DNA of 29,124 nt from an uncultured Acidobacteriota bacterium (GTDB lineage Bacteria; Acidobacteriota; JAQAZP01). The stretch is taken from positions 1 to 29,124 of the forward strand of contig CAWIIB010000003.1 of assembly GCA_963836075.1 (NCBI GenBank), read 5' to 3'. The notes beneath the pieces were generated by a model. It made no database searches. It was not told where the DNA came from and saw only the letters and a program-made list of their open reading frames with translations. Below are positions 8,601-13,595 of this stretch, one piece after another. Numbering within the stretch: the stretch's first letter is position 1; each line of letters begins with the position of its first letter. Made by a program: the position numbers and the translations under genes.

Positions 8601-8825
8601 GGCCAGGCGAGGCTGCGGCCGATCCTGATGACCAGCTCCACCACCATCCTCGCCCTGCTGCCGCTGTCGCTGGGCTTTGGCGAGGGGGCCGAGCTGCGGG
8701 CGCCGCTGGCCTACGCCATCATCGGCGGGCTGGTCACCTCCACCATCCTGACCCTGGTGGTGCTGCCGGTGGCCTATGACCTGATCGACCGCCTGCGGCC
8801 CGCGGGGAGGGGGACGGACGCGTGA
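5675..8825 (+). CDS. RND permease subunit 1 (AcrB/MdtB-like), frameshifted
   Basis: AVRFPVTVVM, LGIDLLPDISSP, TM4 GLLVDNAIVVIENI, LASQFES-type motif (MASQFESLVHPF), GIAVNDGIILID, RLRPILMTS. Pieces 5675.., 6042.., 7323..8825. TGATG overlap with the adaptor gene. Confidence 0.93.
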
Positions 8826-11800
8826 ACCTCCCCACTTTCGCCATCAAGCGGCCGGTGACCACGGTGATGTTCTTCATCGCCCTGGGAGTGCTGGGCGTGA
8901 TCAGCTACACCACCCTGCCGGTGCAGCTGATGCCCAACTACATCTACCCCAAGATGTTCGTCTATGCCGGTTACCCCGGCGCCTCGCCGGAGAAGGTGGA
9001 GGAGGACCTGGTGGAGCGGCTTGAGGCCGAGATCGCCACCCTCGAGGACATCGAGGAGATCGAGGCCGACTCGAACCAGAACTACGGATTGATCACCGTC
9101 TCCTACAAGCTGGGCACCGACCTCAACTACGCCTATCTCAAGCTGGAGCAGAAGGTCAACGGCCTGATCGGCCTGCTGCCCGAAACCGCCACGCTCAGCG
9201 TGGAGCGCTTGGACACTTCGGCCTTCTCCAACTTCGTCATGCAGCTCAACGTGGCCGGGCCGGGGGGCCTGCCCTATATCCGCCGGCTGGCCGAGGAGAA
9301 GATCCAGCCCCGGCTGGAATCGGTGAACGGCGTGGTCAGCGTCCAGGTCTTCGGCGGGCAAAGACTGGGCGTGCAGGTGACCCTCGACGAGGACCGCCTG
9401 CGCTCCTACGGCATCATGCCGACCCAGGTGCTGGCCACCCTGAACGGCTTCCACCGGCGGCGGGAATTCGTCGGCGAGGTGGAGGTGGACGGGAAGCGCC
9501 AGTTCGCCATGGTGGAGGGGCGGTTCACCTCGCTGCAGGAGATCCGCGACCTGCCGTTGAATACCTTGGCAGCGGGACGATCTTCCTCCGCGACGTGGCC
9601 CGGGTGGAGGAGGCGGCGGACCGGCAGACCCAGGTCTCGCGGGTGGACGGCCACCCCACGGTGAGCGTGCTGATCCAGAAGGACGAGCAGTCGAACCTGA
9701 TCAAGGTGGCCCGTCTGCTGCGCCCGGAGATCGCGGCGATCAACGACGAGATGGCGCCCACCGGGGTGCGGGTCAGCACCGCCTTCGACAGCGCGGAGAT
9801 GATCGAGAAGGATATCGACCGGGTGAAAAAGCTGGCCCTGGGCGGCGGGCTGCTCGCCCTGCTGATGCTGCTGATCTTCCTCAGCGGCCCGCGCCGGTGC
9901 TGGTGGTCTCGCTGGCCATCCCGGTCTCGCTGCTGGTGACCTTCAACCTGATGGCCGCCTCGGGCCTGGCCATCGACGTGCTGACCCTGATCGGGTTGAC
10001 CCTCTCCATCGGCCTGCTGGTGGACAATGCCATCGTGGTGCTGGAGAGCATCACCCGGCACCGCGAGCGGGGCCAGCCGCGGATGGAGGCGGCGGTCACC
10101 GGCAGTTCCGAGGTGTTCAAGGCGATCATCGTCGGCACGGTGACCACCGTGGCGGTGTTCACGCCGCTGCTCTGGGTCAAGACCGAGTTCACCGAACTGT
10201 ACAACGACTTCGCCCTGGCCATCATCTTTCCCCTGCTGGTTTCGCTGCTGGTGGCGGTGACCCTGATCCCCATGCTGGCCAGCCGCCTGGGCCGGCGGGA
10301 CACGGGACGTAGACGTTCGACCCAGTCGAGGACCGCAAGCGGCCGCGGCGAGTGCTGCAGATCTACACCCTGCTGCTCAAGCAGCTGGCCCGGCACCAGG
10401 TGCTGACCACGGTCTCCTTCTTCGCCCTGCTGATGCTCACCGTGCTGGTCACCACCCCGATCATCCTCTTCCTCTTCGACGCCAGCCAGCCGCCCACCGA
10501 CCGCATCGAGATGAAGCTGGAACTGCCCGAGGGCACCGACCTGGAATCGACCCTGGCGGTCACCGCCCAGCTGGAGTCGCATGACCCTCGACCTGCCGGA
10601 CCGCAAGGTCACCAATTCCACCGTTCGCGAGGGCGAGGCCTTTGTCACCGTGGAGCTGCTGCCCGAGGACGAGCGGACCTCGGAGCAGTCGCTGGGCGCC
10701 ATCCGCCAGCGGCTCATCGACCGCACCCGGGAGCTGCGGGAGAGCAGCGCGGCCGACATCTACTTCGACCGCTCGCAGTTCCAGAGCGCGGCCGGGGGCG
10801 ATGACGGCGGCGGGGGCGCGCGCGGGAATGCTCGGCCTGACCCGCACCGAGGAGACGGTGGTGCTCACCGGCGAGGAGATGCCCCGGCTGGTGGACCTGG
10901 CCGGGGAGGTGGAATACCGGCTGAGGCAGATCGAAGGGGTGGACGGCGGCATCGATCCGCATGGACGTGGAGAAGGCCACCCCGGAGGTGCGGCTGGAAG
11001 CCCGCTACCGCGACCTGTCGGCCTGGGGGCTCTCCATGCGCCAGGTGATGGGCCTGCTCTGGATGGCCCGCCGGGACGGGGACCGGCTGACCTACCCCTA
11101 CCGCGACCGGCAGGACGACGAGATGCAGATCCAGGTCCGCCTGGGCGAGGAGGGGGAGTGGGGTTTCAGTGACCTGCGGGACCTCTCCATCCCCACGCCC
11201 AACGGCGAGTTCGTCCGGGTGGCGGAGCTGATGGACTTCCGCCGGGAGGCCGGCCTGCCCAGCCTCAAGCGCCACCAGGGGACCCACCGGATCCGCCTCT
11301 ACTACGGCTACGACGACCGAGGTGCTGGACACCCAGACCCGCCTCGACGAACTGCGCGGGACGTGGACGAGCTGCTGCTCGCCATCCCCCTGCCCCGGGG
11401 CTACACCCTGGCCGCGGAGCGGGAGGACGAGGAGACGAACGTCTGGAAGTTCATGCTCTACGTGGCGCTGATCCTGGTCTACATGATCCTCGCCGCTTCG
11501 TTCGAGTCGTTCAACCTGCCGCTGCTGATCCTCTTCACCATCCCCATGGCCCTGATCGGGGTGCTGATCCTGGTGGCGGTCACCGGGGTCGGCCTCGGTC
11601 CGCTGGTCTTTCTCGCCCTGCTGGTGCTGCTGGGCATGGTGGTGAACAACGGCATCCTGCTCATCGATTACGCCCGGCAGCTGGTGCGCAACAAGGGGTT
11701 CCGCCCCGAACGGGCGATCATCGCCTCGGGCCGGGCCCGCTTCCGCCCGGTGATCATGACCGCCACCACCACCATGGTGGGCATGCTGCCGCTGGCCATG

Positions 11801-13595
11801 CGCATGGGCGGCGAGAACGAGATCTGGCCCCCCTTCGCCATCGCGGTGATCGGCGGCATGGCCACCGCCACCGTGGGCACCCTGCTGCTGATCCCCATGG
11901 GCTTCCTCTCCTTCCGCCACATCGGTCTCTGGATCCGGAAGACCCTGGGCCTGCCCTGGGCCCTGGCCGGCACGCTGCTCGCCGCCGTGGCGATCTGGGC
12001 GCTCTACTTCCAGCTGGGCTGGGTCACCTCCGAGGTCTGGCGGATCATCTTCCTCCTGCCCCTCTGGTTCGCCGGTCTGGGCCTGGTGCGCTTCGGCCTC
12101 TGGCTGGCCCGGGGCAAAGAGCGGCGGGAAATCTTCAGCACCGACGAGACGCTGGACATCAGCGTGCGGGAGCTGAAGAAGATCTACGGTGAGGACGGCC
12201 CGTTCCTCCGCGGCTGGAAACAGAACGCCCGCTGGCTGAAGCACGCCCGGCAGCGGGGCATGCGGCTGAACAACCGCGGCCGGCTGGCCCAGGACCTGAT
12301 CTGGAAGGTGCCCGTGCTGGGCCTGCTCTTCTACCTGCTGACCTATTTCGAGAACCGCCTCTGGCTCTTCATCTTCATCGGCATCACCTGGTATTTCGTG
12401 CGCGACTTCCTGGTCACCATGGCCGCCCTGTGGCGCTTTCGCAAGGGTGTCGAACCAGCCGCCGGCACGCCGGTCCGCTTCTCCGAAACCCGCTGGCTGA
12501 ACCTGCTCTTCGGCCTCTCCCTGGCCGTCATGGCCCTGGTCCAGGCCCACGTATCCTGTGAGTTGAACTACGTGCTTCACCATCACCCTCACCTCCCTGC
12601 TGGGCCTGGGGACCCTGGCCCTGCGCACCGGGGCCAGGCTGCGGCGGGGTGAACTGAGCACCGAAGGGCGAGGGGGAAACATCTTCAAGCGGATCGCCCG
12701 CAGCTGGCGGCGGCTGGTGGCCGCCATCCCCCGGGTGGGCCGGGACAAGGAGCGGGTGGCCGCGCTGCGCGGGCTGTCGCTGGACATCGGCGCCGGCATG
12801 TTCGGCCTGCTGGGCCCCAACGGCGCGGGCAAGACCACCCTGATGCGGGTGATCTGCAACATCTACGAGCAGAGCCGCGGCACGGTGTCGATCAGCGGCC
12901 GCGACCCGCGGGAGCACCGGGACGCGGTGCAGAGCCTGGTGGGCTACCTGCCGCAGAATTTCGGGGTCTACGAGAACTTCACCGCCTGGGAGCTGCTCAA
13001 CTACTACGCCCTGCTCAACGAGATCTATGACCGGGAGGAGCGGGAGAAGCTGGTCACCAGCGTGCTCAATCGTGTGGCCCTCTTCGAGCGGAAGGACGAG
13101 AAGCTGAAGGGCTACTCCGGGGGGATGAAGCAGCGGGTGGGCATCGCCACCGCGCTGCTGCACCTGCCGCGGATCATCGTGGTGGACGAGCCCACCGCCG
13201 GCCTCGATCCCAAGGAACGGATCCGCTTCCGCAACCTGCTGGCCGAGCTGGCCAAGGAGCGGATCGTCATCTTCTCCACCCACATCGTCGAGGACATCTC
13301 CGGCACCTGCAACCGGGTGGCGGTGATGGACAAGGGCCGGGTGATCTTCGACGGCACCGTGGAGGAGATGATCGACCGCACCCGGGGCAAGGTCTTCGAG
13401 GCGGTGACCGAGGAGCAGCAGCTGACCGAGCTGTCCAAACGGCTCAAGGTGGTCAACCACATCGGCGAGGGATTCGACAAGATCCGGCTGCGCTTCCTGG
13501 CCGACGGCCCGCCCGCGGACCTGGAAGCCGAGGACGCGGAGCCGAACCTCGAGGACGCCTATCTCTACCTGCGCGGCGGGACCGCGCCGGTATAG
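8822..13595 (+). CDS. RND permease subunit 2 fused to extra TM helices and a C-terminal ABC ATPase domain; ~1590 aa after joining frames
   Basis: AIKRPVTTVM, TM4 GLLVDNAIVVLESI, ASFESFNLP, GMVVNNGILLIDY, RFRPVIMT. The frame continues past RND TM12 through extra TMs. One indel near 12575 joins it to the NBD (GPNGAGKT, YLPQ, YSGGMKQR, IIVVDEPTAGLDP, STH, PNLEDAY). No RBS or ATG precedes the NBD. Confidence 0.85.

Follow-up and report, generated by a model that had tools for sequence, protein, structure and literature searches.

The window analyzed here is the whole of contig C3 (GenBank accession no. CAWIIB010000003.1), a stretch of 29,124 bases in the assembly GCA_963836075.1 of an uncultured Acidobacteriota bacterium. 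It contains a cluster of transporter genes on its forward strand, and our subject is one of these, at positions 8822 to 13595, in which a resistance-nodulation-division (RND) permease is joined to an ATP-binding cassette (ABC) ATPase. We refer to the permease part as RND2, to the unfused permease encoded in the same cluster as RND1, and to the ATPase as the nucleotide-binding domain (NBD). The window holds only a damaged copy of this gene; the intact reference lies on another contig of the same assembly, C9. The parts of the gene map to the window as follows, with model residues counted from residue 1030 of the C9 protein and TM denoting a transmembrane helix.

8822..13595, + strand: fused gene (RND2::linker::NBD), in eight collinear pieces in alternating frames; the C9 equivalent is one open reading frame (ORF) of 1588 amino acids (aa)
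8822..11917, + strand: RND permease core of 12 TM helices plus periplasmic domains, from ACR_tran matches and alignment to the C9 ORF
11951..12124, + strand: two extra predicted membrane helices after RND TM12, with TM13 at 11951-12013 and TM14 at 12032-12124 (AlphaFold2 helices 13-33 and 40-70)
12158..12187, + strand: ISVRELKKIY, predicted to be strand 1 of the ATPase and to include the A-loop Tyr (model strand 82-91)
12275..12647, + strand: predicted four-helix membrane insertion within the ATPase (AlphaFold2 helices mapped to the window), with TM15 at 12275-12346, TM16 at 12356-12442, TM17 at 12491-12550, and TM18 at 12569-12647 (model 121-144, 148-176, 193-212, and 219-243)
12573..12575, + strand: one extra base, which shifts the ATPase to another frame and leads to a stop at 12650-12652
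12756..13592, + strand: ATPase core and C-terminal domain (Pfam ABC_tran E value of 7.3e-28 in the window)
12813..13295, + strand: ATPase motifs mapped in the window, namely, Walker A (12813-12839), Q-loop (12948-12956), signature (13116-13136), Walker B with the catalytic Glu (13179-13208), and H-loop (13275-13295)

As deposited, the window does not encode this protein in one frame. An ORF of 563 aa (10961..12652) is followed by an ORF of 292 aa with a GTG start (12717..13595). An earlier note, made from the letters of the window, had pointed to both and proposed that a single indel near 12575 separates the halves of one polypeptide of ~1590 aa. Its description of the junction holds. In the stop-to-stop frame 10925..12652 (575 residues), ACR_tran is matched as far as residue 330, which leaves a tail of ~245 residues past the RND core, and the NBD frame is open from 12567 and runs to 13595. 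Without the extra T at 12573, the sequence reads ...SCELNYV/FTITLTSLLGLGTLAL..., and the closest database relative, P0005, is continuous at the same place, with CELNYVFSITLTTLVGLGTLAL.

The copy on C9 is a single ORF of 1588 codons (L003:8196-12962, minus strand). Pfam assigns residues 5 to 1029 of its product to ACR_tran (model positions 3 to 1020 of 1021; E value, 1.1e-183) and residues 1314 to 1457 to ABC_tran. When P0005 was aligned to the window with tblastn, its residues 1 to 1588 fell at 8822-13592 in eight collinear pieces with ~90% identity. We searched 5.8 billion proteins of 873 to 2779 aa with residues 1030 to 1588 of the C9 protein as the query. Every one of the 120 relatives listed carries both PF00873 and PF00005, as the earlier note had expected of full-length fused homologs, and most are 1550 to 1620 aa long. 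Five close relatives are 1585 to 1589 aa long, 82 to 91% identical, and uninterrupted across the junction, and at least 110 full-length family members were retrieved.

The family extends well beyond this assembly. The source names of the relatives include Marinifilum (Bacteroidota), Gemmatimonadota, Latescibacterota, KSB1, Krumholzibacteriota, Zixibacteria, and Chlorobi. Cultured Marinifilum species have members of 1580 aa; the Marinifilum members are ~40% identical to the sampled loci, and one Gemmatimonadota-labeled protein is 62% identical to one locus. Public labels on these proteins are automatic and read “efflux RND transporter permease subunit,” “ATP-binding cassette domain-containing protein,” or a double name from JGI. 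Among 401 genomes sampled from the phylum of the window, at least 33, in seven families, have a match that spans the linker and the ATPase; this count is a lower bound, with a further 236 matches beyond those listed. An open frame of at least 1582 aa is present in 31 of the 33, and in the remaining two, the match is located at the start of a contig.

A stand-alone gene for the linker and ATPase was not found, either by a linker-only phmmer search of 1.84 billion representatives or by a word-based search of proteins of 307 to 979 aa. The former gave 29 matches at an E value of ≤0.001, and those inspected start within the RND helices (P0127 and P0129) or within the linker (P0128); the latter gave, besides the ORF of the window itself, no more than a 420-aa fragment encoded on a contig of 1310 bases. 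The ESM Atlas holds ABC_tran clusters of 551, 480, and 418 aa, commonest in Bacteroidota, in which fragments and whole genes are not distinguishable. An alignment-based search of genome contigs keyed on the Walker motifs returned generic ATPases only, with matches from query residue 215 or later. Triple or quadruple fusions were considered on account of stop-to-stop frames of 1826 to 2895 aa around the small permease gene that follows the fused gene in four loci. These were ruled out: the frames differ from that of the fused gene, whose own frame is ~1600 aa, and are Arg/Pro/Gly-rich off-frame readings of high-GC DNA.

The intact ORF in the same assembly, the fused relatives, and the absence of the junction base from other sequences, described below, confirm that the fusion of RND permease and ABC ATPase is real and predict a single polypeptide, as first proposed. 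Neither of the two outcomes that the earlier note had set against its proposal, a confirmed stop with a separate NBD start or a lack of fused homologs, was encountered. We found no account of an RND-ABC fusion in a literature search to which TCDB, subscription journals, and supplements were external; any of these may hold one. The architecture is widespread and uncharacterized, and it joins two known transporter classes through an unusual split ATPase.

The damage in the window is not confined to the stop at 12652. The earlier note had described both energy modules as looking intact. The NBD motifs are all present at 12813-13295 and are invariant in 92 members of the family. The note made no mention of the state of the RND part, which in the window carries 9 further indels between 8822 and 11400, 8 of them frame-breaking, and falls into seven frame pieces. 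In a pairwise global alignment of 8822-13595 to the C9 ORF, there are 10 indels altogether, of which 9 break the frame. Those in the RND core are at 9571 (+2), 9883 (−1), 10307 (−10), 10579 (+1), 10736 (+9), 10816 (+4), 10954 (+1), 11317 (+1), and 11363 (−1); the tenth and last is the additional T (+1) at 12573. Substitutions between the two copies amount to 0.101, 0.068, and 0.208 at the first, second, and third codon positions, respectively, and this third-position bias indicates that the copies diverged under purifying selection.

We examined the junction in independent sequence. Of the words sampled from 11900-13400, no public run contained more than 26%, so that the source reads were not located. 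Logan contigs from four runs were placed on this interval, one of which (X3) gave no cover at the junction. All three contigs that cross 12574/12575 (runs X1, X2, and X20) are one base shorter there. The contig from X20 covers 12428-12831 (403 bases) with only 4 other differences and is about 99% identical to the window. Because one base is absent from every crossing contig, we attribute the stop at 12652 to an artifact of one extra base.

The assembly consists of 10 contigs and 6.23 Mb, with a stated contamination of 4.61%. The window is colinear from end to end with C9:1329587-1301662 on the opposite strand, with 74 to 87% identity and 79 gap openings within the central 14.7 kb. Six other small contigs (C2, C4, C5, C6, C7, and C10) are colinear copies of parts of C9 or C1, mostly with 76 to 86% identity (95% in one stretch) and with ~1 to 20 gap openings per kb. 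Most simply, the small contigs would derive from a related second organism whose sequence was binned with the main genome and assembled at low consensus quality. Within the window, at least four genes of the cluster are broken by indels (those for the stand-alone ATPase, the large permease, RND1, and the fused protein), and frameshifts in several genes of one cluster favor error over decay. The frameshifts of the window, including the stop at 12652, are therefore most likely consensus errors in a low-coverage contig of this second organism, and genes on the seven small contigs should not be called pseudogenes without further checks. Scans of the window for Rfam families and for tRNAs gave no match.

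The linker and ATPase were modeled with AlphaFold2 as the C-terminal 559 residues of the C9 homolog (from residue 1030), using a 92-row alignment. The mean predicted local distance difference test score (pLDDT) was 86.7, and the predicted template modeling score (pTM) was 0.79. The model contains helices at 13-33 and 40-70, a strand at 82-91, helices at 96-113, 121-144, 148-176, 193-212, 219-243, and 255-270, and the ATPase core at 281-559. The strand (mean pLDDT of 97 at residues 81 to 90) lies ~190 residues away from the rest of the ATPase. In comparisons with solved structures by VIA-align, the aligned range opens at model residues 77 to 82 in 48 of the 50 rows listed, mostly against residues 1 to 5 of the matched chain; the exceptions are two ABCA4 rows, which start at 8. 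Examples are 4yer_B (Z score of 29.3 and root mean square deviation of 3.4 over 265 residues) and LptB (80..555 aligned to 2..236). These start positions identify the strand at 82-91 as the canonical first strand of the ATPase. Across the 92 sequences, K89 is invariant and I82 and Y91 are at least 90% conserved; we take the Tyr of this strand to be the A-loop aromatic residue that stacks on adenine.

In the model, then, the ATPase is split by a four-helix membrane insertion, with its first strand at the canonical place, and departs from the contiguous ABC fold, in which strand 1 and the A-loop aromatic directly precede strand 2. The split explains a feature that the earlier note had correctly observed, the lack of the first NBD strand in ORF 12717: the strand is encoded upstream, at 12158-12187, ahead of the four membrane helices. 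AcrB-type permeases have a cytoplasmic C terminus. Given such a C terminus in RND2, two helices before the strand and four after it would place both parts of the ATPase in the cytoplasm. An ATPase whose first strand stands ahead of a membrane insertion is a structural oddity by itself.

The conservation of catalytic residues suggests that the fused ATPase is functional. G300-T308, Q347, S401-R407, D424-E425, and H456 (fragment numbering) are invariant in the 92 sequences, the signature reads SGGMKQR, and the C9 copy reaches 94.9 bits against an ABC_tran cutoff of 25. The best fold matches are TM_1403 (4yer; Foldseek E value, 2.8e-20), NosF, TM0544, and ABCA1/4/7. The nearest NCBIfam models, GldA (174.3, versus a cutoff of 402.6) and DrrA (170.5, versus 312.45), are both below their cutoffs. 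This profile suggests the ABC-2 (DrrA/GldA/NosF-like) class. The fused ATPase and the stand-alone ATPase encoded in the same cluster are paralogs, with identities across loci of 37 to 46% between the two groups and 43 to 57% within them, and a C-terminal NLEDAY motif is common to both.

The permease part matches ACR_tran over its full length, and phmmer aligned it to MdtB, AdeB-type, MexB, and AcrB chains with E values of 1e-78 to 1e-64. We read the proton relay motifs from alignments to MdtB and MdtF, with relay positions placed by the AcrB residue numbering. The fused RND does not have the AcrB-type relay, which consists of Asp-Asp in TM4, Lys in TM10, and Arg and Thr in TM11. Relative to MdtB and MdtF, it has Asp-Asn for Asp-Asp in TM4 and Asn for Lys in TM10, and the TM11 Arg is kept. 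Among the 110 full-length members, D401 and N402 of TM4 are each found in 110 and N940 of TM10 in 109; the position after the TM10 Asn is Asn in 91 and Asp in 15, and the TM11 Arg and Thr are each present in all 110. RND1 likewise has Asp-Asn in TM4, with Asn-Asp (VND) in TM10 in 12 of 12 RND1 rows (a 13th row, from L039, is RND2).

The earlier note had cited the TM4 sequence VDNAIVV as a mark of an intact RND energy module. This is not the AcrB/MdtB-type motif (VDDAIVV), but it is normal for an RND subclass that has unfused members in the same genome. The Asp-Asn/Asn-Asn pattern occurs in at least four unfused RND paralogs of the genome, beside five canonical ones with Asp-Asp and Lys or Arg, and its presence there indicates a trait of the subclass rather than a decay peculiar to the fusion. 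We therefore dropped the idea that the proton relay had decayed in the fused protomer on the way to an ATP-driven RND. From its residues, the RND core looks normal for its subclass. The NCBIfam model RND_permease_2 (NF033617), with a cutoff of 1250, is reached neither by the fused protein (540.8 bits) nor by RND1 (669.2). Two more tandem RND pairs of the Asp-Asn/Asn-Asn subclass are encoded at C9:2427410-2432510 and C1:1213462-1219997; they have no match to the linker or the fused ATPase, and tandem RND pairs seem common in this genome.

The genes around the fused gene in the window are the following.

114..993, + strand: stand-alone ABC ATPase, split between two frames; the C9 copy has 295 aa (ABC_tran E value of 3.1e-34)
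992..4443, + strand: large permease, 1146 aa on C9, fragmented by frameshifts in the window (Pfam matches on the C9 copy, L034:11193-14633, minus strand)
4594..5675, + strand: periplasmic adaptor (membrane fusion protein), probably a lipoprotein, with an ATG at 4594 (HlyD_D23 and HlyD_3 on C9)
5675..8825, + strand: unfused partner RND1, frameshifted once near 6051-6109; the C9 copy has 1051 aa
13704..14450, + strand: small ABC-2-type permease, ~240 aa from the likely start, with weak ABC2_membrane matches in the window
14532..15266, + strand: protein with no family match, 214 to 244 aa, with a hydrophobic N-terminal segment; the C9 copy (L034:565-1209, minus strand) is 70% identical

The order mirrors that on C9, which in the direction of transcription is the ATPase, the ABC-2/M1-like permease, the adaptor, RND1, the fused gene, the small ABC-2 permease, and the 214-aa protein. 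The large permease has an N-terminal ABC-2 membrane domain, an M1-peptidase-like domain, and Golvesin_C. Neither an HExxH nor a GxMEN motif is present in the M1-like domain, which is therefore probably a noncatalytic periplasmic module. The C9 copy of the small permease has six helices and scores 29.7 bits for ABC2_membrane_2 against a cutoff of 27.2. In the window, an in-frame TAG at 14076-14078 interrupts this gene (…LMLAVLT*IFITDF…) where C9 has Tyr; either a substitution error of the low-quality contig or a genuine nonsense mutation could account for it. The protein encoded at 14532..15266 has no Pfam or NCBIfam match, and the small permease gene precedes its gene in both the window and C9.

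The arrangement is conserved at a distance. In 12 distant loci from six further families of the same phylum, the small permease gene directly follows the fused gene without exception. RND1 is matched in all 12 and lies directly upstream of the fused gene in 11, being a C-terminal remnant in L039, and the large permease is matched in all 12, partially in L039 and L044. The adaptor was found in 11 loci; for the stand-alone ATPase, the number is 10. The misses fall in one rearranged locus and at one contig end. The ATPase and large permease genes are inverted yet adjacent in 4 of the 12.

Two further features of the region were noted. Between the large permease and adaptor genes, at 4438-4580 of the window, is an intergenic element of ~135 nucleotides with 80 to 85% identical copies at six other sites of the assembly (on C9, C1, and C4). 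It forms a long imperfect hairpin (−51.5 kcal/mol; z score, −3.0) and looks like a repetitive extragenic palindromic element or a miniature inverted-repeat transposable element. Downstream of the cluster on C9 is a gene for a secreted-type protease with Peptidase_M10 and PPC domains (L003:4214-5623, minus strand; in the window, past ~15700).

We propose that the gene is genuine, that its copy in the window is poorly assembled, and that its 1588-aa product tethers an ABC-2 exporter module to an RND/adaptor pump, a reading to which we give a probability of about 0.6. Along the chain, a 12-helix RND permease is followed by two helices, the first strand and A-loop of the ATPase, four helices, and the rest of the ATPase in the cytoplasm. 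The fused ATPase is probably the motor of an ABC-2-type exporter that is formed with the small permease encoded just behind it, and this exporter might also take in the stand-alone ATPase and the large ABC-2/M1-like permease. The covalent link between the ATPase and the RND protomer would hold the ABC module against the pump made up of RND1, RND2, and the adaptor. RND pumps are taken to be proton driven and ABC pumps to be ATP driven. A substrate would be moved by ATP from the cytoplasm or the inner leaflet, handed straight to the proton-driven RND stage, and expelled across the envelope. Two ATPases are needed for an ABC dimer; they could be provided by one fused protomer per trimer together with the stand-alone ATPase, or by two fused protomers together.

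A predicted complex of the linker and ATPase with the small permease lends some weak support to their pairing. Its ipSAE score was 0.54 (0.52 to 0.56 among runs), and the best of three controls scored 0.00; the runs agree on at least 91% of contacts, with a partner pLDDT of at least 70. In a calibration, 58 of 80 solved complexes passed the mark applied, as did 2 of 110 mismatched pairs. Only 7 of the 80, but both of these mismatches, passed with an ipSAE of ≤0.60; because our own alignments were used, the counts apply only roughly.

Several points weigh against the tethered-exporter proposal. Independent sequence covers only 1 of the 10 indels, and the other nine may belong to a partly decayed gene in the second organism. 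The complex score may reflect likeness to, or memory of, solved complexes of ABC-2 ATPases with their permeases. The true partner of the small permease could be the stand-alone ATPase, and the fused ATPase might find its membrane partner in the six extra helices of its own chain. The symmetry of an RND trimer does not match that of an ABC dimer, and an outer membrane channel gene was not seen among the cluster genes examined.

The same observations can be read in other ways. By way of the six extra helices, the fused ATPase might drive or gate the conformational changes of the RND protomer itself, with the small permease as an accessory. The way in which the ATPase is threaded into the membrane part, with one strand before and the core after the four helices, suggests tight mechanical coupling, and the fused protomer has Asn in place of both the second TM4 Asp and the TM10 Lys of AcrB and MdtB, where the unfused RND1 keeps a second carboxylate in TM10 (VND in all 12 of its rows). 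However, the same Asn residues are found in at least four ordinary unfused paralogs, which makes them a trait of the subclass, and the TM11 Arg and Thr are invariant. In addition, an ABC-2 permease gene stands right behind the fused gene in 12 of 12 loci, a better fit to a conventional pair of ATPase and permease. We consider an ATP-powered RND protomer of this kind unlikely. Still less probable, in our judgment, is a role in which the ATPase and helices assemble, localize, or switch both pumps, for example as a sensor of ATP levels, with no hand-over of substrate. A covalent tether does speak for proximity and not for hand-over, and the cluster's separate ATPase and large permease could form an independent transporter. 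Yet no catalytic residue varies among 92 sequences of several phyla, not even the Walker B Glu or the H-loop His, which is unexpected for a pure scaffold.

The window might also be correct as read, with a pseudogene or split gene that encodes a truncated RND with its helices up to 12652 and a separate, incomplete ATPase from 12717. The deposited stop, nine more indels, and the TAG in the small permease gene speak for this reading, and it is only at 12573-5 that an indel has been compared with sequence from elsewhere. It is contradicted there by three of three independent contigs without the extra base, one of them about 99% identical. At least four genes of the cluster are frameshifted and six small contigs have the same indel load relative to C9 and C1, the third-position bias among substitutions is strong, and an ATPase translated from ORF 12717 would have no A-loop strand. 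We regard this explanation as very improbable.

Beyond the tethered-exporter proposal lies the question of energy. The earlier note had described the protein as a dual-energy transporter, and such use of two energy sources is plausible. We suggest only tentatively, and with more doubt than conviction, that the system is a two-motor efflux machine in which ATP hydrolysis and proton flux are coupled to one export path within one polypeptide, or, in a stronger form, in which ATP drives the RND protomer.

Parts of the cluster resemble known systems. The order of an adaptor gene and two tandem, diverged RND permease genes is that of MdtABC in Escherichia coli, and MdtB (9lyq_B) is the best match among solved structures for the sequences of both the fused and the unfused permeases (E value, 3.4e-78 for the whole fused protein). 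Unlike the protein described here, the Mdt subunits have no extra helices and no ATPase, and both permeases of the cluster carry Asp-Asn in TM4 and Asn in TM10 in place of the Asp-Asp and Lys of MdtB. MdtB and MdtC form a heterotrimer; for RND1 and RND2, the likeness is in the tandem gene order. The best fold and profile matches of the ATPase, TM_1403, NosF of NosDFY (7osf and 7o0y), DrrA, and GldA, share with the cluster a six-helix ABC-2 permease encoded beside the ATPase. These ATPases of ABC-2 (type V) exporters are soluble, stand-alone proteins of contiguous fold, whereas the fused ATPase is split and follows an RND permease.

MacAB-TolC, an ATP-driven tripartite efflux pump, also has an ABC ATPase covalently joined to a membrane domain and works with an HlyD-class adaptor, and the MacB ATPase (5lj6) matches the model with a Z score of 27.4. 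However, the membrane and periplasmic domains of MacB are not of the RND type, and MacB has its ATPase, of contiguous fold, at the N terminus. ArsAB, and SecA with SecYEG-SecDF, use ATP and proton-motive energy in one export process, and SecDF belongs to the RND superfamily; in these systems, the ATPase is separate, soluble, and of another family, in contrast to an ABC cassette fused to an RND permease. As for the split, NBD1 of CFTR has a regulatory insertion, a short soluble segment between strands 1 and 2. The same site of the ABC fold therefore tolerates insertion, and in the fused ATPase, it is occupied by four membrane helices instead.

To our knowledge, RND and ABC pumps cooperate only as separate machines. 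The fused protein offers a natural system for the coupling of two stages of envelope efflux, in which one chain keeps all of the residues for ATP hydrolysis and is encoded within a conserved cluster. Its presence in cultured Marinifilum species opens the idea to bench testing. If true, either two-motor form would be a mode of energy coupling undescribed for RND or ABC transporters.

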